From the NCBI GenBank assembly GCA_043776185.1, contig JAYVRS010000328.1, positions 1 through 26,372 of the forward strand: a DNA stretch of 26,372 nt, written 5' to 3'. The translations under genes were made by a program, and so were the position numbers. The stretch is from Bryobacteraceae bacterium. Lineage in GTDB: Bacteria > Acidobacteriota > Terriglobia > Bryobacterales > Bryobacteraceae. Below the pieces are notes generated by a model. That model was not told the origin of the DNA and made no database searches. It saw only the letters and a program-made list of their open reading frames with translations. Each line of letters begins with the position of its first letter. Position 1 is the first letter of the stretch. Below are positions 100 to 18,966 of the stretch, piece by piece.

Positions 100-810
100 C
101 GACCAACGACAACTACACTCTTGGCAAAGCAGCGCGGGCTGCCTAAACTGGTGCTGACCGGAGCAGAGGGTAAGGCTCTGCAGGGATGCAACCGGAGCGC
201 TGACTCCGGGGCCAGACCAGGTTCGGGGTGGGGTTGACCTGCCCCGGGCCGGCCGCCTGGGATGGCAAGAAAGCGTTAAATCCCGGAGGTCTGGAGGCAG
301 AGCCTCCAGTTTCAGCAAAGCGTTCATTTCTTATTCGTCCTCCGCCTTTTTCTTCTTGGCCTGCTCCATGCGATAGCTGCCGATGTTGAGCTCCAGGATG
401 ACGCTGTGGTGGACGAGCCGGTCGATGGCCGAGGCGGTGGTCATCGGATCCTTGAAGATCACCTCCCATTTCGAGAACGGCAAGTTGGAGGTGATCAGGA
501 CGCTGCCCCGTTCGTAGCGTTCGGCGAGCAGCGTGAAGAGCACCTCCATTTCTTCGCGGCTCTGCTGCACGTAGCCGATGTCGTCGATCACCAACGCGTC
601 ATAGTAGGCCAGTTTCTTGATCGCCTGGCTCAACCGCAGATCCTTCTTGGCCCGCAGCAGATCCTGCACCAAGCGCACGCAAGTGCTGAAAGCCACTCGC
701 CGGCCTTGCCGGATCAGTTCTTGCCCCAACGCCGATAGCAGATGCGTCTTGCCGCTGCCGGGATTGCCAAAGGCCAGCACGTTCTCGCGCCGGTCCAGGC
801 AACTGGACTC
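100..810 (-). mobile_element. IS21-family insertion sequence remnant (3' part of istB plus downstream end region)
   Basis: Contains the istB fragment; no istA in the window. The left boundary is not securely located and may lie beyond the window edge. Confidence 0.55.
331..810 (-). pseudogene. istB: IS21-family helper ATPase IstB, 5'-truncated
   Basis: Walker A GNPGSGKT, Walker B LVIDDIGY, plus LITSNLPFSKW and AIDRLVHH. Similarity begins abruptly at about LDRRENV, so roughly the N-terminal 80-100 aa are missing. Confidence 0.9.
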
Positions 811-1025
811 ATGCCTGGCACCAATTGAGCTGCCCAATTGGGCTCCTCACCGCCACTTCTCCTTGGGTACCGTCTCCTTAGCAAGTGTTTGCGGACCATA
901 CAGGCAGTGTTTAGCACGGTTAGTTATTACGCTTTCGTTGCCCAAAATCCCGTCAGTGCATCTTTCTGGGATCTGTCACTTTTTCTACTCAATCTGCGCT
1001 TCTGTGTCTGAGGAGTAAGATTTTC

Positions 1026-3221
1026 GTGGCACATCCGTTTCTATTTACCCTGATCGCGGCAACTGGTTTAGCGCTCGCGCAGACCAAGCCGCCGGCACCC
1101 GTCTTGATGGGGGAGCCGATTCCGAGAGGCAAATTAATCACCGTACGCATTTCCGGCTTGGCGGACCAAGTGGCGGTGAAAATTTACCGGGACGGCACGG
1201 AGGACAAAGACTTGAAGGCGAGCCCCCCGATGATCTTCGGAGAAGTGGAACTCACCCTGAGCAAGGCGCTGAGCGCTGGGGAAATCGTGACTCTCACTCA
1301 GACGATCGGAGGGCTGGAAAGTCCCCCTTCGGCCGGCTATCGAGTTCCAGCAATTGCTCCCCCGTCCGTCGAAATTCTGTCCGCGCAAGCCTTCTTGGCG
1401 TACAACCTCGTTCCGGTAACCTTTAAGGTCAGCCACGCCGATACGGTGACGTTCAAGATCTTTGGCGGTCCGAACTGTTCCGAGCGACGGGTGACGCAGG
1501 AGGTGTCGGGCGACGAATTGAAGAAGGGGAAGGCTGATATTGCTTTGGCGGGCCCCTTAGATTCCAGCGAAAATTTGTGTTTGACGTATTTAGCTTCGCA
1601 TAAGGGAGCTCTCGATAAAGCGGGCGTATTCAAAGTAGATGTCATTGGGTTAGACTTCCGGTTGGACGGCCCACCCACCGAGGGTCAGCAAGAATTGAAA
1701 GGCAAAGCTGGGTCCTTCATTAAGGGGATGGTAGTGTACGTTTTAGGAGGAGCCTTTCCAGAATCCCGCATTCCGGCCAAAGAACTTAGCCCGACCTTGG
1801 ACAAGCTAAAGACAAACTTCAAGGCGCGTCTGAATATAGAGACCATTCAGCGCGGCCCCGCAACTTCCATTCCTCTCGGTATGTCGTATCTGCAGCTTAA
1901 GAGCCGGCTGAATGAGGTCACTGGGGACCTAAGAGAGGAAGATCCACCAAAACCGAAGAATCAAAAGAAGTCGCTACTTACGCCCAATCAAAAAAGCGAG
2001 GAAGAAAAAGACTATGCAGCGAACGACCTGCGCGACGAAATCTTCCATGACTCCGCCTCGATTGAAAAGGGAGCATTCACGTTTACGCTGAAGCAACGGC
2101 TGGAGGCCGGGCAGCGTTTGGTGATTTGCGCCCTGGTGGAGAATGAACCCGGGTTGAGTCGGCCTTTTTGCGACGAACGGAATCACGTGGTCCAGTCCGT
2201 CGCCATCGATTTCGGTCGTTTGCGCGCCTATTTTTCCGCGGGCACCGTGATTAGTGCCCAAGACGGATCGTTTGGCAAAGCCGCCCCGTACCTTGCGTTC
2301 AATGCTGATTTTGCTTTTGCGAACGCTCTCATTTCGAAGATAGAAAAAAAATCTCTTCCGCTGGTGGCGGGTGATGCTAAACCTGCGGTCGATTCCTGCG
2401 AAGCCCTCGATTGCCTCAAGAATAGGCGTTTTGGCTTCTCTCTGCACGCATTTCTCGACGTCCGTCTGACTCAGGCGGCGACCGATAGCAAGGCGGCGAC
2501 GCCGTTGACTGCCGTAGCGGTTGGCCCCACTCCGCAGCAGGCCGGAGTGGCTCAGATGGGATTCTACTTACCCATGCGGGTCTCGGGAATGGACTGGGTC
2601 TATCGCGGCACCCAGTATTCCGCTTATTTCGCGCCAGTGGGAAAGTTTGGCATTACTCATTTGAAGGATGGCGTCATCCTGAACAGCCAAGACGTGACTA
2701 CGAAGACCACCGTGCAGGATCTGCTGCGGCCCGATGCGGCAGCCAAGGTGACGAACAGCGATCCGGCCACCAAATCGAACGCCACGCAGAACGCCTTACC
2801 TTTTTACGGCTATGGGTTGCGGTTAGGACTGATGCGATACGAACTGATGGGGAGGACGCTAAAGAATCGCCAGATCGCTCCGGACAATTCCGCTTACGTC
2901 GATTTCACTTATGGGCAAAACGGCATTTACCGTCGCAAAGTGGAAGATGCGGCTGTCCAATCGCTTCCGCGGATCACGACCGACAATATGCTCAGGACGA
3001 CGGTTCAGACCACATCGACCAATACTTCCCACCTTCTGGTTCCCGGCTTTAATATCGAGGGCCGGATGAAGCTTCCTTACCTGCCGGCCCAAATCGGCGT
3101 GGATATCTTCTTACATCGGCGGCTGCCAGACCAGAGTGCCTCGTCGGACTTTCGCTTTATTCTGGGCTTCCGTGTGGATGTGGCGAAGGCGCTCAGCCGG
3201 GCGTTTGGCATGGCACCCTAG
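1026..3221 (+). CDS. Large exported protein (731 aa): signal peptide, Ig-like domains, C-terminal beta-strand-rich (beta-barrel-like) region
   Basis: Long ORF, GAGGAG RBS before a GTG start, N-terminal hydrophobic stretch ending ALA-Q. The motif LSKALSAGEIVTL recurs as LKQRLEAGQRLVI. The C-terminal half has alternating hydrophobic strands (AYFSAGTVI, FYGYGLRLGL, FRFILGFRVDV). Confidence 0.8.
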   Translation: MAHPFLFTLIAATGLALAQTKPPAPVLMGEPIPRGKLITVRISGLADQVAVKIYRDGTEDKDLKASPPMIFGEVELTLSKALSAGEIVTLTQTIGGLESPPSAGYRVPAIAPPSVEILSAQAFLAYNLVPVTFKVSHADTVTFKIFGGPNCSERRVTQEVSGDELKKGKADIALAGPLDSSENLCLTYLASHKGALDKAGVFKVDVIGLDFRLDGPPTEGQQELKGKAGSFIKGMVVYVLGGAFPESRIPAKELSPTLDKLKTNFKARLNIETIQRGPATSIPLGMSYLQLKSRLNEVTGDLREEDPPKPKNQKKSLLTPNQKSEEEKDYAANDLRDEIFHDSASIEKGAFTFTLKQRLEAGQRLVICALVENEPGLSRPFCDERNHVVQSVAIDFGRLRAYFSAGTVISAQDGSFGKAAPYLAFNADFAFANALISKIEKKSLPLVAGDAKPAVDSCEALDCLKNRRFGFSLHAFLDVRLTQAATDSKAATPLTAVAVGPTPQQAGVAQMGFYLPMRVSGMDWVYRGTQYSAYFAPVGKFGITHLKDGVILNSQDVTTKTTVQDLLRPDAAAKVTNSDPATKSNATQNALPFYGYGLRLGLMRYELMGRTLKNRQIAPDNSAYVDFTYGQNGIYRRKVEDAAVQSLPRITTDNMLRTTVQTTSTNTSHLLVPGFNIEGRMKLPYLPAQIGVDIFLHRRLPDQSASSDFRFILGFRVDVAKALSRAFGMAP

Positions 3222-3567: not shown

Positions 3568-3594
3568 ATGCGGTGGAATGACCTTCCACCGCAT
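3568..3594. terminator. Perfect 11-bp hairpin
   Basis: ATGCGGTGGAA-TGACC-TTCCACCGCAT, immediately after the TAA of a small minus-strand ORF (3595-3711). No strong U-tract. Confidence 0.4.
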
Positions 3595-3699
3595 TTACGC
3601 CGCCCGATCCCTCTTCGCCCGCTTGATCCACTTAGCGATCTCGATAGCCGTAGCCCCCATCGACAGGAGGGACCGCATCAGCCTAGTTGGTGCCAAGTA

Positions 3700-3888
3700 C
3701 TCGCCAAGCATTATGCACGTGCCGGCATTGTGGAGTATTGGGTGCTGGACCTAACTGGCAGCCGTCTGATTGTGCATCGGCGTCCGGAGGCGGGCACCTA
3801 CCAGGATGTGATGGCTTACGCCGAGCAAGAGTCAGCGGCTCCGCTGCCGGCGCCGGGTGCGGGGCTGGTGGTGGGTAGTCTTCTATAG
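3700..3888 (+). pseudogene. Uma2-family (DUF820) endonuclease, C-terminal fragment
   Basis: KHYARAGIVEYWVLDLTGSRLIVHRRPEAGTY matches the Uma2 C-terminal signature (YAxxGIxEYWxxD). The upstream sequence is unrelated. Confidence 0.8.
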
Positions 3889-3900
3889 CGAGGAAACTGT

Positions 3901-4812
3901 TTATCGGCGGGCGTTGGCAAGCCGCGCCTGGAATCTTTCGGTGAGCTTAGCCTCCAATCCTGTTGGATCCTCCCAAAAGAGATGCTGGTATTGGCGAACA
4001 TCGAACGAGAGAACTGGTCCTGGGCCCTCTTCCGTCCGGCATGTCCAAAATATCGGTTTGCCAAGCGCCTCGGCAAACCCTGCCTCATAGTAGACGTTTG
4101 GCCGATGGGAGGTTACGTCGACAACGACAAACTGAGAGCGTCGAATGTCTGCCATGACACGGTCGCAGATTTTTTCAGGAAAATGCTGCCGGTCCACGCG
4201 GATGGCCTGGAAACCACAGAACTGAATGGCACGGCTAATCGCCGCATAGGCGTCATCCAGTTCGGGGGCAAAACTCATGGCGATGAAGCCGACGCCAGTC
4301 CCGCCGGAGATCGGTTCGAGGGCGATCCAGGCCTTTGGCGTTAGGCGAAACCCTGTCGGCTGGCCTGGGACGCCTTGGTGTAATTCAACCAAGCCTTCCG
4401 ACATTAGGCCATCAAGAATGCCGCTAACTTCCTCGGCGCTTCGCGCCTGTAGTTCAGCCCAGCAAGTATTAAAGTCCCAACGCACGTGTGCGCCAACAAA
4501 CTTAGAATGCTTCTCCATGAACTCCAGAAGCGTGTGACGTTTTGTGGAGTAGGAAATGCTCTGGTATGCCTGGATCAATTGATCTATGTTCGTCGTATCG
4601 ATATGGAATCGCTGACCAGTTGCTAACTGAGCTTGCGCAGACGCGATAGAAAGGCACCATCTTCGGTCGACGTAGTTTTGTTCGCGGAGTAGATCTTGGG
4701 CTTCCTCTGGTAGGGTGAATTTCTTGCAGGCTTTGCATTCGTACCAGAAAGTCTCAGTATCGCTGCGGTAGCCACCATCACAGGGTTCGCCGCACAGAGG
4801 ACAATTGGGCAT
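3901..4812 (-). CDS. Zn-finger + winged-helix-like + nucleoside 2-deoxyribosyltransferase-like (TIR-like fold) protein, 303 aa
   Basis: CPLC...ECKAC at the N-terminus, a helical middle ending GFRLTPKAW, then FIAMSF...DIRRSQFVVVDVTSHRPNVYYEAGFAEALGKP...FDVRQY. Start moved to ATG 4812 because protein-like sequence begins there. Confidence 0.8.
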   Translation of the reverse strand: MPNCPLCGEPCDGGYRSDTETFWYECKACKKFTLPEEAQDLLREQNYVDRRWCLSIASAQAQLATGQRFHIDTTNIDQLIQAYQSISYSTKRHTLLEFMEKHSKFVGAHVRWDFNTCWAELQARSAEEVSGILDGLMSEGLVELHQGVPGQPTGFRLTPKAWIALEPISGGTGVGFIAMSFAPELDDAYAAISRAIQFCGFQAIRVDRQHFPEKICDRVMADIRRSQFVVVDVTSHRPNVYYEAGFAEALGKPIFWTCRTEEGPGPVLSFDVRQYQHLFWEDPTGLEAKLTERFQARLANARR

Positions 4813-5108
4813 AATCGATTCTAGCGAAATTCGGCTGATAATGCGTGTTGTGTTTCTCGAGTACCGGAATAGAAGTGTGGCTAGACGCTCGGAACCTCCA
4901 CGGCTAAAAGCCCTAGGCAGAGCAATATGTACTGTTCTTGAGAGCCTGGTGTGTAACTTTATTGGCACGTGCTCGGCTTTGTGCAGCGGGCACATAGGTA
5001 ACACTCTAGCCCATCGCGTCAGGGGTGGCGAATGGACTCCAGTTGTACCGACGGTTGCGAATGTTTCGGACGAACAACTGGGGTCCGAAGCGTTAAAATT
5101 TACAGAAT

Positions 5109-6104
5109 TCAGGCCCGCGCCAAGATTCGCCTTCCGCGGGGCAATGGATTTGATTTGTGCCGGAAGCGCCTGGACGCGAGGGGGGGAATGGCCAGCAGAT
5201 CCAGAACTTGCTCCGCGGACGAAGGTCGCAGCGAAGGGTTATCGGAAATCGCCGCTTGGATCGTCGTTAACCAAGATCGGGGCAGGCCGCCGTTGAGGTT
5301 GCAAGGGGCACCCGCCACCATTTCGTTTAGCAGCACTCCCAGTGCGTAGATATCGGTTAGCTCAGTGACCGGCTGACCCTTCAACTGTTCCGGTGCCATA
5401 TAGCCGCGCGTCCCCATGACTCGGCTGAGGCCCGGCGCGCGACGATCGGCTAGTCCGAAATCCATGATGACGGCGCGGCTGGGCGTCAGCATGACGTTTG
5501 ACGGCGTTAGATCCAGATGCACGATACCCATTCGATGAATGGCGGTGAGTCCACGAACTAACTGCTCGACGATGGTTTGCGCTTCAGTTAGGCGAAGGGG
5601 GCCCGTGCGGCGCAGGCGGGCAGCCAAGGATTCACCCTCCACTAATTCCATGGTTAAAAAGGCCACGCCGGTATGGCGGCCGATGTCGAAGAGCCGGCAG
5701 ACATTGGGGTGAGTGACTTGACGCCCGATCTGTAATTCGCGGCGAAAGTTCCCTAGCAAATCCGTATGCATTACTTTAAGCGCAATGGTGCTCTCCGCTT
5801 CGTGATCGAAAGCGGCATAGACCTCGCCCATACCGCCTGCTCCAATTATCTGTAAGATTTGGTACCGGCCAGCGAGACAATCGCCCGGCATGAAACGCGC
5901 CTCGGGCGGTGAGTGTAATTTCTTTACCGCATCCGGTGCGTCTTCGAGAAATTCGCCGGCGTCCTGATCTTGCCGGAGTAACTGCTCCACGTCGGCGGCA
6001 AGGTCCGCTTCGACGCCGGCTAACAGAACGGCGCGGCATTCAGAAGGTTGACTGCGGCACAGTTCAAATAGCTCGAGAATGCGCACCCAACGCTCCGCGG
6101 TCAT
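5109..6104 (-). CDS. ECF-associated Hanks-type Ser/Thr kinase, kinase domain only (no TM or sensor tail)
   Basis: GAGGMGEV, IALK, HLDLTPSN, DFG, GYMAPE, DIYALG. N-terminal extension (ERWVRILELF...VEQLL) typical of kinases paired with TIGR02999-type ECFs. ATGA overlap with the ECF gene. Confidence 0.9.
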   Translation of the reverse strand: MTAERWVRILELFELCRSQPSECRAVLLAGVEADLAADVEQLLRQDQDAGEFLEDAPDAVKKLHSPPEARFMPGDCLAGRYQILQIIGAGGMGEVYAAFDHEAESTIALKVMHTDLLGNFRRELQIGRQVTHPNVCRLFDIGRHTGVAFLTMELVEGESLAARLRRTGPLRLTEAQTIVEQLVRGLTAIHRMGIVHLDLTPSNVMLTPSRAVIMDFGLADRRAPGLSRVMGTRGYMAPEQLKGQPVTELTDIYALGVLLNEMVAGAPCNLNGGLPRSWLTTIQAAISDNPSLRPSSAEQVLDLLAIPPLASRRFRHKSNPLPRGRRILARA

Positions 6105-6721
6105 GTCAGTTCACCGTAGAGCCAGGCCTTGGCGATGGTCCAATCGCGTTTGATGGTACGCGAACAGACTGCTAAGTGGATAGCAACCTCGTCTTCCGTC
6201 ATTCCGCCAAAGAAACGCAATTCTACGACCAATGCTTGGCGCGGGGCGAAAAGGGCGAGCCGGTCCAGCGCCTCATCGAGATTCTGGATTAGTTCACATT
6301 CTCCATCGCCAGCCAATTGGAGATTCTCCAAGTTCAGCTCGATCTGGCCCGCGCCGCGCTTGAGAGCCCGACGCTGGCGCGCATGATCCGTCAAGATGCG
6401 ACGCATGACGGTGGCGGCCATAGCAAAGAAATGCGAACGGTCTTGCCAGTGCGGGGTCTGTTGGCCAGCCAATTTGAGGTAGGCTTCGTGGACGAGGGCC
6501 GTCGGTTGCAAGGTATGGTCCGGCCGCTCGCGGCGAAGGAATCCAGCGGCCAGTCGTTTGAGCTCGGCATAGACACTCGGCACCAGTTCAGCCTCGGCGG
6601 ACTTATCGCCCGCCGCCAAGCGACGTAACAGACTGGTAATTTCGCGTTCCTGATCTAAGCAGTCAGAAATGGCGGGTAGATAGCCAATCGGAGAACGATC
6701 CTCGTCGGCGCGGCGCTTCAT
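6101..6721 (-). CDS. ECF sigma factor, kinase-associated type (TIGR02999 / EcfP-like)
   Basis: EITSLLRRLAAGD, LQPTALVHEAYLKL, WQDRSHFFA, LDEALDRL, VVELRFFGG. GAGGAGG RBS; translationally coupled to the kinase. Confidence 0.93.
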   Translation of the reverse strand: MKRRADEDRSPIGYLPAISDCLDQEREITSLLRRLAAGDKSAEAELVPSVYAELKRLAAGFLRRERPDHTLQPTALVHEAYLKLAGQQTPHWQDRSHFFAMAATVMRRILTDHARQRRALKRGAGQIELNLENLQLAGDGECELIQNLDEALDRLALFAPRQALVVELRFFGGMTEDEVAIHLAVCSRTIKRDWTIAKAWLYGELT

Positions 6722-6809
6722 GACTTATCCTCCTCGATGAGCTTGGTTTGCTTACCAGAAGAAGACGTATCTCATACAGATTTCCCTTTTCGGAGTTACT
6801 CGAACTTAC

Positions 6810-7724
6810 TTACACCATGATCTGGCCGGGCAAGCCAAGGTCAGCGAGGGCCTTGGCCAGGGGCGAGACGACTACGAAATGCGCGACGTTAGTACCGGTG
6901 ATCAGTCCGATGGGATGACCTGCGGCGTCAGCGGTGACGACGAGGCCGCCAGAATTCCCAGGCAGCGCGAATTGAGTGTCATCGGCCTGCACGAGAATAC
7001 TGCCATTGAACTCGACATCGTCCAGAGAGCAGGGAAAGTTGCTCGCGCCCATGGCGACGTGAAAAGTACCCACGCCCGTAACGGTACCGAATGCGTCAAC
7101 GCCGTTGACCGAAACTTTCACCCGCAGATTCACGGTGGGAGTGAACGGGTTCGGGTTAGGAGTCCAACCGGGAGGCCAGGCTGGAACGATTCCAGCGGCG
7201 GGATCGAGCAGGCAAGCCGCGGCGTCCGCTTGGTGGCCGTGAGGCTTTAGCTCGCTGAAAACGATCGTCCGGCTCACCCGCTTGGTACCCAAGTACACGC
7301 CATGGGACGGGTCGGCTAGCGGTAAATGCCGGCCATTGCAGGCCAGGACGTGATTCGCCGAGAGGAGCCAGACGCCGTCCGCATTCCGCGCAAAGGCCCC
7401 GATCGACCCAGGAATTTCACCTTGAGCGCCGCGAACCGAAACCGGCGAACCCATCCTGCCAGCGGGTGAGCCGGCCGCCGCCACAAGGGCTAAAGGCGCA
7501 GCCGGACTCGGCACGGCGGAGAAACGGCACATCGGTACGCGGTGAATCCGCACCGGAAGCAGTCCCAGCGCATCGAAGCCACTGAGAAAACCCACGAAGC
7601 CGGGTGGAAGATAGATCGTCAAATCCCAATGGCCGCCCTCTTGGGTGAGCGAATAGCCCACCCGATTCGATAGCTGGTGCATAATCGGACGAATCCGCTC
7701 AATCAGCTCTTGGTAATCCATCAT
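6810..7724 (-). CDS. Trypsin-fold serine protease with N-terminal pro-region (Nal1-like architecture)
   Basis: Triad candidates LSANHV (His), ADAA (Asp) and PGNSGG (Ser). No signal peptide. Start could be 7724 or 7754. Confidence 0.82.
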   Translation of the reverse strand: MMDYQELIERIRPIMHQLSNRVGYSLTQEGGHWDLTIYLPPGFVGFLSGFDALGLLPVRIHRVPMCRFSAVPSPAAPLALVAAAGSPAGRMGSPVSVRGAQGEIPGSIGAFARNADGVWLLSANHVLACNGRHLPLADPSHGVYLGTKRVSRTIVFSELKPHGHQADAAACLLDPAAGIVPAWPPGWTPNPNPFTPTVNLRVKVSVNGVDAFGTVTGVGTFHVAMGASNFPCSLDDVEFNGSILVQADDTQFALPGNSGGLVVTADAAGHPIGLITGTNVAHFVVVSPLAKALADLGLPGQIMV

Positions 7725-7729
7725 GGCAT

Positions 7730-8626
7730 CTAGGGAGTAAACGACCCGTTGCATGCGGAGCAGCAGGATTTGCAGCCCTCGCCATTGAGGGGCTGGGAGC
7801 TGGAGAAACGAGCTGTCCTCGCGAAATCCACCAGATGGTCCACCAGTTTCGGCCGGCTCTTGAGCGAGCTTAGCTCCAGCGCCGACAGACCAGGAGGCAA
7901 GTCCGGTTGCATCGCCAGATCTTTCGGCGGGCCAGCTAACTGAACTGTCGTCTGGCCGAAGAGGCTAGTCGACAGCGCGAATTCATCTTGCGAATGGCTG
8001 GCGCTCACCGCTTGGTCAGGTGGCGAGTCAATCAGATGAAGGGTAGCCACCTTGGCATGGTTGGGGAACTCCGTGAACGACGAACTCTGCCAGTAGCTCT
8101 GAAGTCCGTCCGGTGAAGTGAGCTCAATGAAATCAAAAGAAGTGGTCACCGCGTATTCGAATACGGTGAGGCCACAAACCTTGGTGGCTGGCGCGATGAG
8201 CTTGGCCGGATTGGTGACGACGGCGTCGCCCAGGCGCAGGTAATGAATCTTTCGCGGGCGCGGCAGAGCGAGGCTAGCCCAGATACGCTCGTCCTTGGCA
8301 TCGGGCAGCGCCGTCACCAGAATGGTGGGCGTGAGGGTAGGGTCGAGTGAATTGGCGGCCGTCTTTGGTGACGTACTAACACCGCGCAAAGTGGCGCTGA
8401 AGCCGCGCGGCACGTCGGTTTCGAGCAGCCAATTGCCGAGCCGGTATTGGTGGTCGCCACCGATGTTGAGGGCGTACGCGTGGAACTCGTCGCCGGGACC
8501 TTCGACCAGCGAGACCAGCCCGTGAAAGGCCACGTAAAAGCGATTGTCCGCCGGTGGCGCGGGGATGGATAGGTCGACGAAAAAGTCGCCATTTTTGTCG
8601 CGAAGTTGGATGATTGTTTCGGCCAT
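7730..8626 (-). CDS. Unknown protein (298 aa), paralog B, Cys-rich C-terminal tail GEGCKSCCSAC
   Basis: Long ORF with AAGGAG RBS; colinear motif identity with 8684..9544. Confidence 0.85.
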   Translation of the reverse strand: MAETIIQLRDKNGDFFVDLSIPAPPADNRFYVAFHGLVSLVEGPGDEFHAYALNIGGDHQYRLGNWLLETDVPRGFSATLRGVSTSPKTAANSLDPTLTPTILVTALPDAKDERIWASLALPRPRKIHYLRLGDAVVTNPAKLIAPATKVCGLTVFEYAVTTSFDFIELTSPDGLQSYWQSSSFTEFPNHAKVATLHLIDSPPDQAVSASHSQDEFALSTSLFGQTTVQLAGPPKDLAMQPDLPPGLSALELSSLKSRPKLVDHLVDFARTARFSSSQPLNGEGCKSCCSACNGSFTP

Positions 8627-8683
8627 TGTGTATCTCCTTGTAAGGGCTCAGGAGTAAGGACGCCTAAGCCCGCACAATCCCTT

Positions 8684-9544
8684 TTAGCCTTCGCTACCGT
8701 CGGCCCCGGAGCAACAAGATTCGCACCCGCCGCCGCTTTTGGCGCGGTAGGTGGAGCTGGCGCTTGTCCCTCCACGCGCCTTATTGGCCAATGACTCCAG
8801 AAATTGCTCGCGCTTGTAGAGAGAGAGTAACTCGGCAGCACAGAGGCCGGGGGGCGGAGTGGAAGGCTTGCCATCCACGGTTTTAGTGCCAATCTTTACG
8901 GCCCGCTCGCCCAGCACCCGGGCGGATAGGTTGAACTCCGCCAATGAATGATTGTCGCTGGTCTCCAGCGGAGGGTTGCTGAAGACGTGTAGGGCGGCAA
9001 TAACGTAGTCGTCGCCCTTGACAGTGACCATGGTGCGCGAGTTCGGCTCCCACAAAATCGAACCGCTTTCGCTCACCAGGTAGCAGCCCGCAAAAGAATT
9101 TAGATTGTAACGGAACACGGTCACGCCGGCATTGAGGCCGACGTGTGGATCGACCAAACATCGGTGACCGTCGCTTAGATTCAGGGCACCGGAATTCCCG
9201 TAGTTTATGTCATCCGGACGCGGAAGCACGATGCGCGCATGAATCGCTTTCTGCGCTTCATCGACCGGTTTCTTCAACTCAATCGTGGGCCGCTTGGAGG
9301 CATCCAGTGCCGCGTTACGGGTGGTCGGGCCAGCCCCAACAACCAACTCGCCGGCGAATCCGGCGAGAATGCCGGCTTCGCGCAACCAGTCGCCATAGAG
9401 ATAGCGATGCTCGTCGCCCATCGACAGAACGTACGCCCGAAATTCATGAGTCGTAGTGTTTTCCACGATCGGCGTGAGACCGTGAAAGACGACATAGACG
9501 ATATTCTTAGTTTTGGCTGGTGACTTTTTCTTAGCCATATCCAT
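8684..9544 (-). CDS. Unknown protein (286 aa), paralog A, Cys-rich C-terminal tail GGGCESCCS
   Basis: Long ORF with AAGGA RBS, 19 nt downstream of the CHAT gene stop; colinear motif identity with 7730..8626. Start 9544 or 9538. Confidence 0.85.
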   Translation of the reverse strand: MDMAKKKSPAKTKNIVYVVFHGLTPIVENTTTHEFRAYVLSMGDEHRYLYGDWLREAGILAGFAGELVVGAGPTTRNAALDASKRPTIELKKPVDEAQKAIHARIVLPRPDDINYGNSGALNLSDGHRCLVDPHVGLNAGVTVFRYNLNSFAGCYLVSESGSILWEPNSRTMVTVKGDDYVIAALHVFSNPPLETSDNHSLAEFNLSARVLGERAVKIGTKTVDGKPSTPPPGLCAAELLSLYKREQFLESLANKARGGTSASSTYRAKSGGGCESCCSGADGSEG

Positions 9545-9563
9545 AGTTTCCTTTCAACACAAA

Positions 9564-12467
9564 TTAAGGCAACCCAAACAACTGAAAGGCCGCCCAAAAA
9601 TAGGGGTGGTGCTGGAGCGGATCCCGCTCGACCGCGAGCGCGGCTTCGCGTAAGGCGGCGGCCGGCGCCATACCTTGCTGCAACCGATCATAAAAACGCT
9701 CCATCATCTGCGCCGTGGCGCGGGAGTCGACATTCCAGCGCGAGGCCAATACCTGGCTCGTCCCGGCGTCCAAAAAGGCTTGCACGAGGCTTTCGACATT
9801 GACGGAGCCGCCATCCTCGCCGGCGCCGGACGAACACGCGGCCAGGGTGGCCAGGCGCAGCGCATGCAGGTCGAGATCGGCGATCTCGGCGGCCGTGATC
9901 AACCGGGTGCCCACCCGCGGTTCGCCGGCCAGAACTAAGGCGCCATTGCCACCGTTAGCCACACCGTGCCCGGCGAAGTGAAAGAGGCGATGGCGAGTGA
10001 GCTGCTGCTGAAGTGCCTCCACGTGCGCGCCCGCTCCAGAGAGGTAAAGATGTTGGGGAAATAGGTGGCGGAGATGTTCCGCTTCGGCTAAGCCGGCGCT
10101 GAGTACGGGGAAGCGTGGACGGTCGCGTGGGTCGACGGCCGGCTCGGCTACTACCAGGGCCGGTTGCCAGTCGAGCGGCACGTCGAGCGACGGACGCGAG
10201 ACCGGCGCTGAGCCCCAGCCAATAGTTTGGACGACGGCGACGCGCGATAGCAACGCGCGTCCCTCACGGTCTCGCAGTGCGCCCCAAGGCAGGACGGCCA
10301 GCGGACCGTCAGGATCCACAATGAGCGTGCGGGCTCCGCCAAAACGCGATTCGAAAGGCAAGATCAGGAGATCGTACAGTTCGCGGCCGCTCTGGTTCAC
10401 CACCGCCAGCGGCGAACCGGAATTAGCGACCAGGGCGGCAAAGCGTTGCGCCAAGCGCGTGAGTTGCGGCTGCGTAATTCGATGCAGGGCCAGGCCTTGG
10501 GCGTCGGCCCACCAGACCACCGGCCCTGAGGGAAGCAGCGCCACGGCTAGCCAGACCTCGCCGGGCGGCGGCGAAAGCCGAATCGGCTGTCCCGGATTGG
10601 CCAGCGTGCGGAAGGTCTGCCACGTGCGCAGCGCCGCGGTGGGCCCTTCCGTATCGAGCTGTGCTTCGGTCAACAAACGCCAAGCTGGACCGATCTCTAG
10701 AGCGGTGGCGTGCCGTTGACGACGGCCGCGCAGCGCGTTCACGATCGCCACCGTCTCCTCCACCAACACGCGATAGTGACGCAACGCTTCCGGGCGATTG
10801 CCTTGCTGCCAGAACGCCCGGCCCATCATGGGCAGCAACATAATGCGGCTGTCGTGATCCAACTTTCGATAAGGGAACTCCGCGCCGTTGGTCACCCGCC
10901 GTAAACGAACCAAGGCCTGGTCGGCGTGCCCGGCGACAATATCCGTCGAGGCTGATTCAATCTCGTTGGTAGTTTCGCCGGGCAGTTTGGCGCTGGGATC
11001 GAGCCGGAAAAAGTCGGAGCGGATGGCGGCTCGAAGCCACTGATTTGGATGGCCCTCCATGACGGCCATCGACTCACGGAAGAGCAGCGCCGCCAGACGG
11101 GAATAGCCGAACGACTCGGCCATCATGCCCAACGGACTATAGAAATTAGTGGCGAAAGGCGCCGGCAGCACGCTGCGCCAATAGGCGGCCAACCCGCGAT
11201 GCGCCAGCTCCCAGGACTCCACCGGCGCCGTGAAGGCGTGGAAAGGCTCCACCAAAGCGCTGGTGGCGCGCAGTTCGAGATCTAAGAAGCCGCTGCCCTC
11301 GATGCGGGCCAGCAGATTTTCACTCTCCGTCAACATGTCGATCACCCGCTGGCGCGACTTGCAGGCGGCCGATTCCTGCTGAGCCCGGAGGTCCACCCAG
11401 CGATAACCGCCGGCCAAGCCGATCTGACGAGACCTTTCGGCGAGCGGCCGGCATTCCGCACTGCGACCGCTGCGGCGAAGGGCGTAACTGGCTTGCACGC
11501 CTGAGACCGCTTGTCCGGCGGCATTCCCAGCGCGAGCGTAAAGTAGGCCCGCCTGAATGCCCGCTTCGGCGGCGGTGGAGTAATCTCCGGCAGCATTCGA
11601 CAGCGAAGCACGGCCCAGGGCTTGGTCGGCCACGATGTTGGTTGGTGCCGTCAACAGATCCTGCAGCACCGGGTCAGCTAACTCAGTACGAAAGTACAAA
11701 GCCAGCCGGCTCAGGTCGGCGCTGAATTCTGTCCGCCGGGGCAGCCATTCGGAGAGCGCGAGTTGCAGGAGCAGTTCGGCGGAGCCTGGGATGTCCCGGG
11801 CTGGCTCTCGCCGTGCCGCCACCCGCGCCACGCGGTCCCGGCGGCGGCGAGCCTCGCTTTCGGCAGCTTGGAGACGCTGGATGAAGGTGGCTTTCCGCGA
11901 ATCATTTACGCTGGCCGCTGCCTTCTTCCAGTAGTCGATCGCGACCTGGGGAGCCGGTAACTGAGCGCTCACCTCCGCCAGATTCGCGAAACCCAGGGCG
12001 GGGAATCCGGGCAGCTCCGAAGCTTCAATCAGCGCGTTGGCCGCTGTCGCCCAATCAATCGCCCGATTCTCCGCAGCGGCGCGAAGGCCCAGACTGACGC
12101 CATAAGCCATTTGAAGGTGGGCATCGTCAGAGTCCAGCAAAGTCGCCAAACGCATCAGCCGAACCGCTTCGGCATGGGCACCTCGAAGGGACGCGAGCCT
12201 GCCCCGCAGGTAGAATGAACGCGGCGTCGGCCCGAGGCGCGCGTCCGTCGATTCAAGGGCTCGGGCGACTTGCGCAAGTGCCGTAGCTTTGGCCGTATCG
12301 CTCAGCACGGGTGGGTCGGCGGATTGACCGGGCCAGTAGAGCGAGTTCGGCGCCGGGAAATTGTTTAAGGCACCTTCGGCGCGCGACAGCTGAAAGTGGG
12401 GCCAGCGCCACCAGCTGATCGCCGCGATCAGGGTGAGAGCCGGTGCGAGCCACCATCGTTTGCGCAT
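9564..12467 (-). CDS. TM/signal-anchored TPR + CHAT (caspase-family) protease, 967 aa
   Basis: N-terminal MRKRWW plus hydrophobic stretch, helical repeats, then CHAT motifs LIVDPDGPLAVLPW, HFAGHG (His at 9966-9968), LAACSSG (Cys at 9834-9836), ASRWNVDS and HPYFWAAF. Confidence 0.92.
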   Translation of the reverse strand: MRKRWWLAPALTLIAAISWWRWPHFQLSRAEGALNNFPAPNSLYWPGQSADPPVLSDTAKATALAQVARALESTDARLGPTPRSFYLRGRLASLRGAHAEAVRLMRLATLLDSDDAHLQMAYGVSLGLRAAAENRAIDWATAANALIEASELPGFPALGFANLAEVSAQLPAPQVAIDYWKKAAASVNDSRKATFIQRLQAAESEARRRRDRVARVAARREPARDIPGSAELLLQLALSEWLPRRTEFSADLSRLALYFRTELADPVLQDLLTAPTNIVADQALGRASLSNAAGDYSTAAEAGIQAGLLYARAGNAAGQAVSGVQASYALRRSGRSAECRPLAERSRQIGLAGGYRWVDLRAQQESAACKSRQRVIDMLTESENLLARIEGSGFLDLELRATSALVEPFHAFTAPVESWELAHRGLAAYWRSVLPAPFATNFYSPLGMMAESFGYSRLAALLFRESMAVMEGHPNQWLRAAIRSDFFRLDPSAKLPGETTNEIESASTDIVAGHADQALVRLRRVTNGAEFPYRKLDHDSRIMLLPMMGRAFWQQGNRPEALRHYRVLVEETVAIVNALRGRRQRHATALEIGPAWRLLTEAQLDTEGPTAALRTWQTFRTLANPGQPIRLSPPPGEVWLAVALLPSGPVVWWADAQGLALHRITQPQLTRLAQRFAALVANSGSPLAVVNQSGRELYDLLILPFESRFGGARTLIVDPDGPLAVLPWGALRDREGRALLSRVAVVQTIGWGSAPVSRPSLDVPLDWQPALVVAEPAVDPRDRPRFPVLSAGLAEAEHLRHLFPQHLYLSGAGAHVEALQQQLTRHRLFHFAGHGVANGGNGALVLAGEPRVGTRLITAAEIADLDLHALRLATLAACSSGAGEDGGSVNVESLVQAFLDAGTSQVLASRWNVDSRATAQMMERFYDRLQQGMAPAAALREAALAVERDPLQHHPYFWAAFQLFGLP

Positions 12468-12474
12468 CGGGTCT

Positions 12475-13374
12475 TCAATGAATCGCTTTGATCCGGTCGC
12501 GAACTTCGCTAGACCAGAGCCGGTCGCCTTCCGATCCTTGGCGAACCCTCAGCAGAGTACGCCAATCCCGACCGGCTTCTTGACCTTGTCCGAGCCGCGC
12601 GTAGGTCAGGCCGCGATTGTATAAGGCCGCCGGGTCGACCGGGCGTTGGGCCAACACTCGGGAAAACTGTGCGAGGGCCCGAGCATAGTCATCGGCGGCA
12701 CCGCCTTCGGCCCTGGCGGCGTAGGCTACGCCTAACAGGCCGGCCACGTCGAGGTCGTTGGGTGCCGACCGGCGCGCCGCTTCCAGGGTCTGTACTGCGG
12801 CATCTACCTTGTGTTCGAGCAATTCGCTCCAAGCCCGCAGACGCATCAATTCAACGCCACTCTCGCCCGCAGCCGACCGTTTCGCGAGTTCCGCTTGTGC
12901 CTCCAAAAGTGCGGCCGGTACAGGCTGATCGGAGCCTCTCTGGGCTTGGGTACGCCCATAGTCGGCGTGAGGCAATCGCCAATCGAAGGGGCGGGCAGTG
13001 GCGGAAGCCTGCGCGAGCAAGCCCGGCACGGGGTCACGCCGGCTAGCCAGGTACCAGGATCCGGCAGCGATGATCACGAGGGCGGCGGCGGCGATACTCC
13101 ACAGGTGCGGCCACTTAGGACGGGTTCGGCTATTCCGGCGAACGGGCCGGGACGGCGGCTGCCGAAGAACCTGCCCGATTAACTCCCGTTCGGTAGGCGA
13201 CAGTTCATGTTCCAGGTCGCGAATGGTTTGGCGTAAAGCCTGGCCGCACACGTCGCACGCAGAGACATGCGCCAAACGAACCTGTGTCTCATCGGCCGGT
13301 AACAGGTCCTCGGCGATTTCAGTAAGCTCCCAAGAAGAGAGGCAGCCAGGTTTCGAAGTGCTCGACGTATTCAT
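12475..13374 (-). CDS. Anti-sigma-like protein: zf-HC2 domain, one TM helix, TPR domain
   Basis: HVSACDVC (HxxxCxxC), TM WSIAAAALVIIAAGSWYL, TPR-like AALYNRGLTYARLG. ATGA overlap with the upstream ECF. Confidence 0.88.
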   Translation of the reverse strand: MNTSSTSKPGCLSSWELTEIAEDLLPADETQVRLAHVSACDVCGQALRQTIRDLEHELSPTERELIGQVLRQPPSRPVRRNSRTRPKWPHLWSIAAAALVIIAAGSWYLASRRDPVPGLLAQASATARPFDWRLPHADYGRTQAQRGSDQPVPAALLEAQAELAKRSAAGESGVELMRLRAWSELLEHKVDAAVQTLEAARRSAPNDLDVAGLLGVAYAARAEGGAADDYARALAQFSRVLAQRPVDPAALYNRGLTYARLGQGQEAGRDWRTLLRVRQGSEGDRLWSSEVRDRIKAIH

Positions 13375-14153
13375 TCCTCTCCCTTAGTAGGACGTGGCGA
13401 CTCGCCAAAACCCTTTTGCTCCGCGGGAGCCAACTCAGCCCGCAAAGTTGCGGTTAGGCGGTAAAGCAGGCTTTCCACCCCCTTCACGGTGAGCCCAACA
13501 GCGGGCAAAGCCGCGATCTCTTTGGCCGTAAAGCCTTGGCGATAATAGAGCCAGAAGACGTTGCGATCCCGCATATGTGATTCTGGCCCGCAGGCCGCCG
13601 CCAATAACCCATCGATCCGCTCAAAGAGCATTTTCCGGTGAAGTTCCGATTCGGCCGGTTCCGCGAGGGCCAGATCATGCTGGAGCACGTCGAGCGAAAC
13701 CGCCTTGCGCGCATCTTTTATCGGATTCCGGAGCGTGCGCAAGTGATCGACGGTGGTGGAATAGGCCACCGCCCGCACCAACGCGTACACGCCGTTGGGA
13801 TGGTCGGAACGCAGGTGGCGCAGGATTTTGCCGTTGTTCGCGCAGAGCTTGAGGTAGACATCCTGCACCAGGTCCTCCACCATGGCGCGGCTGGGTCCAC
13901 TGGAGGTGGATAGGGTGCGAACGACGGTGCTCACAATAAGCTCGTGAAAACGCGCGAGAAAACCATCCCAAGCTTCGATTTTTCCAGCTTGCGAGGAAGC
14001 CAACAAAGTTTTGAATTCATCCGGCGGCAGAACATAAATATAGCACCGGCGACGAGCCAAGGCGGTGGACGTGGGGTCACATTTCTTGGGATTGCTAGCG
14101 AGCGCGAGGTGATGGTCCACACGGGCATGGTCTGGAGAAAACGGATCATTCAC
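13371..14153 (-). CDS. ECF sigma-70 factor (start uncertain)
   Basis: Region 2: AWDGFLARF...VEDLVQDVYLKL...AYSTTVDHLR. Region 4: FWLYYRQGFTAKEIA...VKGVESLLYR. Confidence 0.88.
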   Translation of the reverse strand: MNDPFSPDHARVDHHLALASNPKKCDPTSTALARRRCYIYVLPPDEFKTLLASSQAGKIEAWDGFLARFHELIVSTVVRTLSTSSGPSRAMVEDLVQDVYLKLCANNGKILRHLRSDHPNGVYALVRAVAYSTTVDHLRTLRNPIKDARKAVSLDVLQHDLALAEPAESELHRKMLFERIDGLLAAACGPESHMRDRNVFWLYYRQGFTAKEIAALPAVGLTVKGVESLLYRLTATLRAELAPAEQKGFGESPRPTKGEE

Positions 14154-14419: not shown

Positions 14420-16054
14420 ATGCCTACCAGAACAAAGACTCCGATTACTGCGGACGCAGAGATCAAACTTACCATCAAAAAATTCGGCCCTTCCAGCGAA
14501 GAGCTCGTTGCCATTGGCGAGCGAGTCTTCCGGCTCGCGCCGGTGCGAAAATTTTCCGGCGATAGCGCAAGGCTTTTGTATACCGAGCTAGTCGACGATG
14601 ACGGAGACCAGAAACAGGGTAAGCCGACGCCGCCCAACCGTTTCCGCGTGACGATCCGCGACGATGCAGGCCACCGCACCATATACGCGGACGGCCCAGT
14701 GAACGATCCGACAGCCGTGGAGCTAACTGCGTCCGCAATTTCTCCGCATCCATCCACGGCCGAGTTTGCCGCCGCTTTGGCGATCCTGCGGCGAGACTCG
14801 TTTTTCGCAGAGAACCTCGCCGAGAATCGACATCAGCCGTATCAGCCGATTCCCGCGGTCACGCTGACCGAGCTCCCCGATGGAAGGGTGAAGCGCAGTA
14901 TCGCGGTGGGGTTGCTGCCGCGCGAAGCCCAGGCACTCCACGAAATCGTCGCTGTGGATCTAGCAAACGGGATGGTGGAGCGATTCGAAGGCCGTACCCC
15001 TCCCAATGCACGGCCGTCCAACTCCAGTACCTGCGGCGCTCCGGCAGGCGCCAATCAATCGACCGCCGGCAAGGGAACGGCTGGACAAGTATCGGTGAAG
15101 GTCACTCAGGGCTCGCAGACTCTCTGGACGTTCATAGCCGTGCGGCCGGCCGCATCGAGTGGCACGAATGGCTCCGGCATCGAGCTGCGCTACCTAGATT
15201 TCAAAGGGAAACGAGTGCTGTATCGGGGCCACGTGCCGATCCTCAACGTGAAATACAATGGCGACGCCTGTGGACCCTATCGTGACTGGCAATATCAGGA
15301 AGGCATGATCCAAGCCAGTGGCGTCGATGTGGGGCCAGGCTTCCGGCTTTGCAATTCACCCGCCAAAACGATCACGCAAACCGGCTCGGACACGGGCAAT
15401 TTCCTGGGCACGGCGATCTACGTGGACGGCAGTGAGGTGGTGTTGGTGAGCGAGATGGAGGCGGGCTGGTACCGCTACGTTAGCGAGTGGCGTCTCGATG
15501 TTAACGGCACCGTCCGCCCGCGATTCAGTTTTGCGGCGGTGGAGAGCCCTTGCGTTTGCAACGTGCACCACCATCACGTCTATTGGAGGCTTGACTTCGA
15601 CATCCGTTCGGCGGGCAACAATCGCGTTCGTGAGTTCAACGATCCGCCCTTGGTGGGCAACTCTAAGTGGCATAACAAGAGCTTCGAAATCCGGCGCCCG
15701 CGGGACTATGGTCGAAAACGGAAATGGCTGGTGGAAAACACGCGCACAGGCGAAGGCTACGAGATCGTGCCGGGCGCGGCGGACGGCGTGGCTACGCTGA
15801 TGCCTGACTGGCCATTCGGTCGGGGAGATGTGTGGGTTCTGCGGTACCGCGGAAGCGAGATTGACGACGGCGTGGTGGCCACGGGTCCCCCCTACGAGGC
15901 GCAACTCGACAACTGGGTAAACGGCGAGGCGGTGTCCGATCACGACGTGGTGATTTGGTATGCCGGACACTTTACTCATGATCTGAGTCATGAGGATCCG
16001 GCGCAACACGGACACATTGTAGGCCCCGAGTTGCGGCCGGTGAAGTGGGGCTAA
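14420..16054 (+). CDS. Copper amine oxidase-like protein (cytoplasmic, non-canonical cofactor motif)
   Basis: GWYRYVSEW aligns to GNYDYxxxW; HHHHVYWRLDFDI aligns to HxHxFxxRLDxDV; DVVIWY...HDLSHED aligns to DxVxWY...HxPxxED. PYRDW lies at the catalytic Asp position. AGGAGA RBS. Confidence 0.72.
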   Translation: MPTRTKTPITADAEIKLTIKKFGPSSEELVAIGERVFRLAPVRKFSGDSARLLYTELVDDDGDQKQGKPTPPNRFRVTIRDDAGHRTIYADGPVNDPTAVELTASAISPHPSTAEFAAALAILRRDSFFAENLAENRHQPYQPIPAVTLTELPDGRVKRSIAVGLLPREAQALHEIVAVDLANGMVERFEGRTPPNARPSNSSTCGAPAGANQSTAGKGTAGQVSVKVTQGSQTLWTFIAVRPAASSGTNGSGIELRYLDFKGKRVLYRGHVPILNVKYNGDACGPYRDWQYQEGMIQASGVDVGPGFRLCNSPAKTITQTGSDTGNFLGTAIYVDGSEVVLVSEMEAGWYRYVSEWRLDVNGTVRPRFSFAAVESPCVCNVHHHHVYWRLDFDIRSAGNNRVREFNDPPLVGNSKWHNKSFEIRRPRDYGRKRKWLVENTRTGEGYEIVPGAADGVATLMPDWPFGRGDVWVLRYRGSEIDDGVVATGPPYEAQLDNWVNGEAVSDHDVVIWYAGHFTHDLSHEDPAQHGHIVGPELRPVKWG

Positions 16055-18052: not shown

Positions 18053-18904
18053 CTAGTAACTCCGTAAGTGCTGGAGTAACTCGCTCTCGTGCGCAGTGAC
18101 TGGAGCCGCCTTAAACGCGGGGCTGGGTAGAGTGGCCTCCCAGCGGACGCCCGGCAAGAAGACGGCGACAAAGTCCCATAGGATGCGGCCTTGCACCAAG
18201 CTCGCTTTCCCCCGTACGGGCGTTGTTTCGGCTCGGAGGAGTGGCTGCCAGAAGCTGGCGAGCAAAAGCTGGGGGTCCCAGAAATGGCGCACGCGCGGGT
18301 CGGCGGCGCGGGCCATGGTTTCTAGCGACGGCGCTTCGGTGTCGCTATCCAGCACTGGTTCCCAAACGAGAAACGCCTTCACGTCCCGCTGCGGCAACTG
18401 GTGCAGCACAGATTCGATTGCAGAGGCCCCCTGCAAACAAGTGCTTCAAGTGGGGGAGAGCAGCGCTATTACACGCGTCTCGTTTATCGAAGCGTTGAAG
18501 CTGGTGCGGAGTTGATTGAGGTCAATGAGCGTGCGGAGCGGCAACGCTGATACCCCGCCCTTTACCGCGGATGGCGAGGCTGAGCCCGCCAAACGATTGG
18601 CTGACCATTGCGGAAACGCCCCCAGCGCCACCACGGCGCCCAGCGACAGCCATACCAGGGCCTGAGCCCATAGCGGCCGGGCCATCGCGCAACTGCGCTT
18701 CCGGTACAAAGAATACAACGCATAGCCCACCAGGGCCAGGGACAAGGCCAGCAGATAGGGGCGCGCTTCCGTAAGCCAAACGCCACCAATTGAGAGACCG
18801 CCCGCTAACAGAATCGCGGGCAGCGGCAAGCAACAACTCACCATCGCCACCACACTCGCCAGTGCGGCCAACGCGGATACCGAGGCTCGTTTGGGCTCAT
18901 TCAT
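18053..18904 (-). CDS. Putative selenoprotein: MerT-like membrane domain fused to a thioredoxin-like UxxC domain (283 aa, Sec at residue 153)
   Basis: ORFs 18446..18967 and 18053..18436 are in the same frame, separated only by TGA at 18448-18446: ...VIALLSPT-TGA-STCLQGASA. The N-terminus has MerT-like VSCCLP, RPY and YRKRSC. Start placed at MNEPK (18904). Confidence 0.8.
18405..18445 (-). promoter_or_regulatory. Candidate bacterial SECIS element
   Basis: Directly 3' of the TGA: lower stem AGCAC/GTGCT, upper stem TTGCAG/CTGCAA and a G-rich apical loop (GGGGCCT) 16-22 nt after the UGA. Confidence 0.6.
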
Positions 18905-18966
18905 GTCAGTACTCAGCGTCTCATAACGCCGCGAATCAGGCAAACTAGAGAGAGGAGATCGCATCA

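Follow-up and report, generated by a model that had tools for sequence, protein, structure and literature searches.

What do a sigma factor, its membrane-bound inhibitor, two proteases and a pair of proteins without known relatives do in one run of genes? The question is raised by a window of 26,372 nt, the whole stretch of DNA analysed here (contig JAYVRS010000328.1 of a Bryobacteraceae bacterium, assembly GCA_043776185.1, from a sediment metagenome), in which nine co-oriented open reading frames (ORFs) on the minus strand fill positions 3901-14153. A first-pass annotation had proposed an envelope-sensing, CRISPR-independent protease cascade in which a CHAT protease acts on two neighbouring Cys-tailed proteins. 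Sequence comparison indicates that a five-gene cassette within this run is real, conserved and undescribed: an extracytoplasmic function (ECF)-type sigma factor (ECF1), an anti-sigma factor, a CHAT protease, an orphan protein that we call X and a serine protease (S1). The cassette is rare and so far comes from uncultured soil and sediment Acidobacteriota. We give an even chance to the overall reading that it is a "split DdvA" trans-envelope switch with output genes of its own. In the window its genes are as follows.

13371..14006, minus strand: ECF1, a divergent ECF-type sigma factor of 211 aa from TTG at 14006 (the longest ORF runs to 14153), recognised by TIGR02937 and by orthologues.
12475..13374, minus strand: anti-sigma factor with zinc-finger residues H36/C40/C43, a transmembrane (TM) helix at residues 91-109 and an outer TPR-like domain (domain, topology and homology searches).
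9564..12467, minus strand: membrane-anchored helical-repeat/CHAT protease of 967 aa (PF12770, E 2.5e-54), with its dyad and an N-terminal anchor.
8684..9544, minus strand: X paralog A (parA) of 286 aa, an additional copy specific to the lineage and without a motif of its own.
7730..8626, minus strand: X paralog B (parB), 298 aa, of orphan fold and with Cys289 in its tail (structure model and conservation).
6810..7754, minus strand: S1, a chymotrypsin-fold serine protease of 314 aa with an N-terminal alpha/beta domain of ~75 aa and a probable start at Met12 (7721), assigned by triad and fold.

Fourteen loci were compared, namely the window and 13 others annotated with our own profiles and the window proteins, covering near and far relatives of X. 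The order ECF1, anti-sigma, CHAT, X, S1 was found in all 14 as far as each contig reaches, and each of the five proteins is homologous to its counterparts across the loci, the identity of X being ~30% between the farthest ones. The first-pass annotation had named a gene order not conserved elsewhere as a finding that would tell against it; the gene-neighbourhood comparison kept the order in every locus. The relatives that carry names are metagenome-assembled genomes of Candidatus Solibacter and Candidatus Angelobacter. With parA as the query, 5 of the 7 other genomes in the window's genus yielded matches, 53 further genomes of the family or order yielded none, and a profile of the X family found no homologue in a 400-genome sample of the phylum. 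The literature searched held no description of this cassette, of the X family or of the split anti-sigma/CHAT paralogy set out below.

The co-orientation of the nine genes and the gaps between them are as first annotated. ECF1 and the anti-sigma gene overlap by 4 nt; gaps of 7, 19 and 57 nt separate anti-sigma from CHAT, CHAT from parA and parA from parB; and parB and S1 overlap, or stand 8 nt apart if S1 starts at Met12. Beyond S1, 88 nt lead to a second sigma gene (ECF2), which overlaps a kinase gene by 4 nt, and 296 nt lie between the kinase and the last gene, first labelled a nucleoside deoxyribosyltransferase (NDT), counted from its Met at 4812. No intrinsic terminators were found at the gene ends and no sigma-70 promoter matches on the coding strand. 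The number of X genes varies: X-X-S1 is found in the window and two relatives, a single X in three members of the genus, and X-S1-X in two Candidatus Angelobacter genomes (L025, 6417-9250; L026, 8935-11894). Since the second X follows S1 in Candidatus Angelobacter and precedes it elsewhere, X was duplicated independently in separate lineages. The parA copy is confined to the window, loci L001 and L002/L005 and close metagenome contigs.

ECF1 is a borderline match to TIGR02937 (42.4 bits, the cut-off being 42.9) with a weak match to Sigma70_r4_2, and orthologues were present in all complete loci. The start first taken for it, at 14153, gives way to TTG at 14006, which is the likelier one because of the conservation in the upstream alignment and the 211-aa length of the orthologues. 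One element was found upstream of the gene.

14037..14045, minus strand: extended -10-like element TGnTATA[TG]T upstream of ECF1, the sole conserved block there in five loci of the genus.

In an alignment of five related genomes conservation upstream of ECF1 begins sharply at this element, which by its sequence would act as a promoter of the housekeeping type. The anti-sigma factor encoded next has one TM helix and a TPR match, its H-x3-C-x2-C residues H36, C40 and C43 are invariant, and its zinc domain is on the cytoplasmic side of the membrane helix.

The dyad of the CHAT protease, His834/Cys878, was invariant in 12 orthologues. The label "TPR-CHAT" holds for the PF12770 domain with its intact dyad, while the N-terminal part gave only weak TPR matches. 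All CHAT orthologues begin with 2-4 basic residues followed by a hydrophobic segment, beyond which the flank is mixed in charge; from this signal-anchor pattern we infer that the body of the protein lies outside the cytoplasm. Furthermore, the outer domain of the anti-sigma factor (residues 128-299) proved homologous to residues 39-204 of CHAT (hhalign 98%, E 2.6e-13, 166 columns), a module visible by profile-profile comparison only, as BLASTP of one protein against the other gave nothing significant. This homology and the topology together define a unit, a membrane helix plus a TPR-like module, that is common to the anti-sigma factor and CHAT, which probably associate with each other on the outer side of the membrane.

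By architecture the two proteins look like a split, heterodimeric DdvA, in which one chain binds sigma and the other is the protease. In the DdvA-DdvS complex two identical anti-sigma/TPR-CHAT chains dimerise via their periplasmic repeats, and each CHAT site faces the membrane-proximal linker of the partner (PMC11506125). Signal-induced cleavage in trans, followed by RseP, was proposed by the authors, who found RseP-dependent degradation on domain removal (PMC11506125). The two systems share an ECF gene beside a single-pass anti-sigma factor with H-x3-C-x2-C, a helical-repeat/CHAT part predicted outside the cytoplasm, a His-Cys dyad, and a proposed role of CHAT as a trans site-1 protease on the partner's membrane-proximal segment. 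In contrast to DdvA, where TPR-CHAT is fused to the anti-sigma factor, CHAT is here a separate, self-anchored 967-aa product in all 14 loci, and the anti-sigma factor keeps the paralogous TPR-like module only, so the complex would be a heterodimer instead of a homodimer. The output also differs, being X-S1 (with ECF2-kinase) in Acidobacteriota and not CBASS/CRISPR in Myxococcota.

How such a switch might be linked to its genes is suggested by a two-block promoter-like motif, AAGG[GA]A-N15-CGT[CT], which stands at the head of three units (anti-sigma-CHAT, X-S1 and ECF2-kinase). The motif was matched 28 times in the 14 loci, compared with 2.7 in shuffled sequence. The copies in the window are these.

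13391..13415, minus strand: motif in an AAGGGT variant (one mismatch), shortly before the anti-sigma start and still within the 3' end of ECF1.
8659..8683, minus strand: exact match to the motif immediately before parB, within the 57-nt spacer that separates it from parA.
6764..6788, minus strand: motif upstream of ECF2, with invariant blocks in 5 of 5 genus loci.

Before the anti-sigma gene the search pattern detected the motif in 9 of 11 loci, and a tenth copy with one mismatch was read by eye in L020; in about 10 of the 11 it sits 15-25 nt upstream of the start. Upstream of X it was present in 13 of the 14 loci, the window included, and in the distant loci the CHAT-X gap is 70-270 nt. Only L018 has no copy there: X begins 8 nt beyond CHAT, and the single copy of this locus is found immediately past S1 at the contig end (9820-9844, plus strand), which hints at an additional regulated gene downstream. 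Within the 88-nt S1-ECF2 spacer, AAAGGGA and CGTCTTCT were invariant in five genus loci with 15 variable bases between them; the spacer of the motif is thus constant in length and variable in sequence. As for the -10-like block, the genus loci have CGTC at all of their heads, and the two heads of the distant loci have CGTT. Across the whole genome a stricter form of the motif matched only the copy before ECF2, and the loose form occurred 25 times, which is about chance by estimate (no shuffle control).

Because the motif persists where ECF2 is absent and ECF1 is the sole sigma factor always alongside, ECF1 is its most economical reader, and we consider it probable that the motif is an ECF1 promoter. 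The proposal that the cascade autoregulates through its ECF sigma factor is retained in part: ECF-driven transcription is backed by the conserved motif, but the motif stands before the anti-sigma gene and not before ECF1, and classical sigma autoregulation was not seen. As only the housekeeping-type extended -10 element precedes ECF1, a constitutive ECF1 with feedback through induced anti-sigma and CHAT may hold.

In the split-DdvA reading, the zinc-finger, single-pass anti-sigma factor would hold ECF1 at the membrane, and its outer domain would pair outside the cytoplasm with the paralogous, membrane-proximal module of the separately anchored CHAT. An envelope signal would prompt the CHAT dyad to cut the anti-sigma factor, the site-1 role proposed for DdvA, and intramembrane proteolysis would next free ECF1. 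For CHAT as the site-1 protease we put the probability a little short of even. Free ECF1 would read the motif at the three heads. The anti-sigma-CHAT(-parA) head would then serve feedback and reset, and the X(parB)-S1 head would be the output, in which the presumably co-transcribed S1 would process X, for example by removing or opening its tail as in protease-activated effectors. In the window's genus only, the ECF2-kinase head would add a second tier, with phosphorylation by the kinase as a further gate.

The presumed output protein X is the least familiar part of the cassette. The Cys-tailed pair had been described as paralogs without a known family, and this was borne out: parA and parB share 34% identity (E 1e-40), and no family or fold was matched. 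With parA, a word-indexed search of 5.8 billion proteins gave homologues in 10 clusters, and an exhaustive HMMER search with parB gave a family of 148 clusters at 50% identity. Among 139 full-length sequences H59, G64 and P124 were 100% conserved, followed by E69, Y158 and C289 (99%), R258 (98%), H211 (97%), H197 (96%), E251 (94%) and H35 (92%). Cys289 is located in an otherwise variable, Gly-rich C-terminal tail, and the position four residues on is mostly Asn, Asp or His. A C-x-S-C-C-S cluster in the tail is limited to the window's clade; elsewhere there is one conserved Cys. No signal peptide or TM helix was found in ~140 sequences, and X is predicted to be cytoplasmic. From its conserved residues X is probably metal-binding, with four His, two Glu and the tail Cys as the putative site, possibly closed by the tail.

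The AlphaFold2 (AF2) model of parB is mostly beta and of high confidence (predicted local distance difference test, pLDDT, 92.7; predicted TM-score, pTM, 0.92), and the extreme C-terminus is modelled confidently as a docked strand. No meaningful fold match was obtained in the PDB (Foldseek, VIA-align), AlphaFold DB clusters, Swiss-Prot models, BFVD or the ESM Atlas, the only matches being to uncharacterised family members, and no family match was obtained in Pfam (81 members), a PDB profile search, a language-model atlas or PADLOC. VIA-align returned no PDB chain at Z >= 2 (48,161 representatives; Foldseek top 996). Its best Z is usually 7-8 even for unmatched models, and the result for X may reflect an unusual, elongated form of the model or else a fault of the tool; it is a "no match" for the model and falls short of proving a new fold. 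Known identities were tried and rejected as well. A mu-homology domain gave weak 3Di matches with a TM-score of about 0.1; a gasdermin found no PADLOC, Pfam or fold match (any PDB chain, Foldseek or VIA-align); and a sorting signal like MYXO-CTERM or GlyGly-CTERM is not compatible with a tail that has no hydrophobic segment after the Cys.

S1 had been called a trypsin. No sequence match was found in Pfam, NCBIfam or the PDB, yet the label proved apt: His135/Asp177/Ser268, with the Ser in G-[DN]-S-G, were invariant in 30 homologues, and the AF2 model (pLDDT ~90 over the catalytic part) matched alpha-lytic protease, Streptomyces griseus protease B (SGPB) and rice NAL1 in Foldseek (E 7e-11 to 1e-7, TM-score by target ~0.73-0.75). 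Among the 30 homologues, Pfam assigned Trypsin_2 to five, Nal1_C to three and Trypsin, S64 and S32 to one each, mostly weakly. The order His-Asp-Ser, the G-x-S-G sequence and the double beta-barrel of the model place S1 in the chymotrypsin fold (clan PA). With this invariant triad and the invariant CHAT dyad, the two proteases first annotated are both accounted for. No export signal was found in S1.

S1 adjoins X, and in 13 of the 14 loci, the window among them, a single head with the motif precedes the two genes. That S1 processes X is a tentative proposal, which we would not put much above one chance in three. A comparable pair is found in the trypsin-MBL modules (bioRxiv 10.1101/2025.09.03.673762; MBL, metallo-beta-lactamase), where a trypsin-fold protease likewise stands beside a probably metal-dependent and apparently self-blocked partner, and by analogy this likeness suggests proteolytic activation. 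In contrast to those modules, X has neither the MBL fold nor the HxHxDH motif and found no Foldseek match, and control is by a sigma factor here and by Hachiman, Argonaute or AVAST sensor fusion there. In a more far-reaching version X would be a metalloenzyme of new fold whose C-terminal tail works as a "cysteine switch" and keeps it latent: the conserved Cys, together with the residue four on (Asn, Asp or His), would sit on the His/Glu metal site until S1 opens the tail. The result would be a three-tier cascade in which CHAT frees the sigma factor, the sigma factor induces S1 and S1 activates X. Taken together, we regard these steps as unlikely.

The two genes after S1 were also considered.

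6101..6721, minus strand: ECF2, a sigma factor of the PF07638/TIGR02999 type (E 1.6e-53 and 3e-62).
5109..6104, minus strand: short soluble Ser/Thr kinase (Pkinase, E 8e-44), without a TM helix.

These genes had been thought a possible separate accretion. ECF2-kinase follows S1 in 5 of the 6 loci of the window's genus, with the same motif upstream, which does not suit a casual acquisition; comparison of the loci makes it a genus-level addition to the cassette. Kinase orthologues were found in L001, L002, L014 and L015, and a kinase gene also lies near one very distant X homologue; the remaining distant loci showed no ECF2-kinase, the sequence of several of them stopping shortly past S1. The view that the two ECF factors are of different regulatory types was upheld, ECF1 being paired with a zinc-finger anti-sigma factor and ECF2 with a kinase. 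Region 2.2 of ECF2 reads PTAL before VHEAY (by eye, without alignment to EcfP), where canonical ECF factors carry an acidic DAED-like motif. A kinase gate is proposed for ECF2 because the acidic motif appears to be missing, as in phosphorylation-activated sigma factors (PMC8999054). Like the ECF43 pairs EcfP-PknT and EcfK-PknS (PMC8999054), ECF2 shows translational coupling to a Ser/Thr kinase and is without an anti-sigma factor, and by eye it also appears to lack the DAED-like motif, with PTAL at that place; it differs from them in belonging to PF07638/TIGR02999 and in the short, soluble kinase without a sensor domain. The placement of ECF2-kinase behind the same motif as X-S1 suggests a sigma cascade.

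The last of the nine ORFs lies outside the cassette.

3901..4812, minus strand: zinc-ribbon plus NDT/TIR-like protein (PF05014, weak, E 3.8e-4; PADLOC TIR effector, 1.3e-8).

The NDT label is thus carried by a weak Pfam match, and the TIR-effector model of PADLOC fits better. The gene was found in no other cassette locus and has a patchy distribution independent of the cassette, in agreement with its earlier description as a possible separate accretion. Its C-terminal domain recurs with other N-termini in scattered relatives, and a second copy is present on contig C905 of the same genome; judged by its sequence, the protein may be a stand-alone defence-type effector. To the left lie an IS21 IstB ATPase fragment (331-837, minus strand), a Uma2-family nuclease fragment (3568-3888, plus strand) and between them a 731-aa protein without annotation, whose N-terminus is hydrophobic (1026-3221). 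From the IstB and Uma2 fragments, this flank looks like a variable region scarred by mobile elements. To the right are housekeeping genes (tpiA, rlmN, jag and yidC), and gatB flanks the cassette in L001 and L002. At 14420-16054 on the plus strand the window encodes a divergently oriented protein, with a domain like that of copper amine oxidases (PF01179, E 5.5e-11), that is not kept beside the cassette elsewhere, and for the ORF at 18446-18967 (minus strand) no Pfam family was found.

Other explanations of the cassette have to be weighed against the split-DdvA reading. The one closest to the first-pass annotation has CHAT cleaving the neighbouring Cys-tailed proteins directly, as in gasdermin or Csx30 systems, with the tail or the body freed as the effector. 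Proteases beside bacterial gasdermins cut dedicated neighbours, CHAT always adjoins X (in the window parA follows after 19 nt) and the CHAT dyad is intact. For type III-E systems, TPR-CHAT proteases with dedicated neighbouring substrates are established (PMC10028731). The predicted topology nevertheless speaks against direct cleavage, since it puts CHAT on the outer side of the membrane and X in the cytoplasm: a signal-anchor-like segment and the module shared with the outer domain of the anti-sigma factor are seen in every CHAT orthologue, neither a signal peptide nor a TM helix nor a gasdermin-like fold is seen in X, and S1 is without an export signal as well. Moreover, most loci give X its own promoter-like motif and a second, cytoplasmic protease. 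We regard direct cleavage as quite improbable. Craspase (Csx29, Csx30, Csx31, CASP-sigma; PMC10028731) does resemble the cassette in coupling a TPR-CHAT protease to the release of an ECF-type sigma factor, but its CHAT is cytoplasmic and RNA-guided via gRAMP, whereas CHAT is anchored here, cas genes are lacking and the sigma inhibitor is a classical ZAS anti-sigma factor, not Csx30. Independence from CRISPR, as first supposed, is consistent with the lack of gRAMP/Cas7-11, Csx30 and Csx31 in the window and in the related gene lists. A similarly low probability is given to a scheme in which ECF2 or another PF07638-type sigma factor reads the motif, X-S1 is a kinase-controlled output, and ECF1, anti-sigma and CHAT are a separate sensor that travels with it. 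The copy before ECF2 itself is in the classic position for ECF autoregulation, a fragment of a PF07638-type sigma gene in L002 is preceded by a similar site, and the very distant X homologue has its kinase gene nearby. Against this scheme, the motif heads X and anti-sigma without nearby ECF2 or kinase in L013, L019, L020, L022, L025 and L026; of the 12 ECF2-like sigma genes in the genome, the local one alone carries it; and the -10 variant shifts jointly at both heads between cassette lineages.

Two further proposals concern the role of the cassette and the nature of X. A function in anti-phage abortive infection, with the CHAT/sigma switch inducing a protease-activated, toxic X, has precedents in DdvS/DdvA, which drives CBASS/CRISPR, and in trypsin-MBL, where a trypsin-like protease unlocks an autoinhibited, metal-dependent effector; the NDT/TIR-like gene and mobile-element debris beside the cassette in the window also fit. 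But no cassette protein matched a PADLOC model except for a generic kinase, the flanks are housekeeping (tpiA, rlmN and yidC here, gatB in L001/L002), the NDT gene is in no other locus, and in two genomes of the genus the cassette lies stably beside gatB and not in a variable island. No defence-island context was found for the conflict system first suggested, the gene context offers nothing for it beyond the unrelated NDT/TIR-like neighbour in this window, and we consider a defence role rather unlikely. X might also be a precursor resembling ribosomally synthesized and post-translationally modified peptides (RiPPs), whose Gly-Gly-Cys tail is a core peptide released by S1. The Gly-rich stretch ahead of the conserved Cys, the C-x-S-C-C-S cluster of one clade and the adjacent protease gene agree with this, whereas a folded domain of 270 aa, in which His and Glu residues are near-invariant, would have to act as the "leader", no locus contains a modifying enzyme or exporter, and outside the clade a single Cys is conserved, making a precursor peptide hardly credible.

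The split-DdvA reading itself has a number of observations against it. The topology of CHAT comes from hydropathy and the positive-inside rule alone, and the anchor of the window's CHAT is weakly hydrophobic and Trp-rich. In a phmmer comparison CHAT matched no PDB chain at E <= 0.01, including DdvA, craspase and separase; as there is no sequence match to DdvA, the likeness is one of architecture and not of family membership. Classic ECF promoters are GGAAC-N16-17-CGT, and the spacing of the -35-like and -10-like blocks found here is slightly below this. The motif-like site at 352-376 (minus strand) in L002 precedes the fragment of another PF07638-type sigma gene, which leaves room for recognition by an ECF2-type sigma factor. 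On the output side, the N-terminal domain of S1 is found in the window and the distant loci and missing in three genus loci, so it is not essential; complex prediction for S1 with parB scored 0.00, which gives no answer either way; and Cys289 is assumed, as a possibility, to adjoin a conserved His in X. No RNA sequencing run with the locus was found, the only matching runs being DNA runs of one sediment study.

The ECF54 sigma factors, for which control by neighbouring carboxypeptidase, subtilase and CHAT proteins was proposed (PMC8999054), share with the cassette a conserved synteny of an ECF sigma factor, a CHAT protein and a serine protease; in contrast to the cassette they are actinobacterial, have no anti-sigma factor, are accompanied by a subtilase and not by S1, and lack the X family. 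The switch described here is of a known kind, and its X output is so far unclassifiable.

If the split-DdvA reading is true, the cassette would be a natural split DdvA with the protease and the sigma-binding halves as separate proteins, and the idea of CHAT as a site-1 protease would become directly testable. Most CHAT-associated sigma factors have no known targets; here the switch would be linked to a defined output with recognisable promoters. The X family, with its 148 clusters and a predicted fold that is confident but unmatched, would be a target for structure determination and enzymology. In the cysteine-switch version, the bacteria that carry the cassette would pass a signal across the membrane by a proteolytic cascade that ends in a new effector activity.

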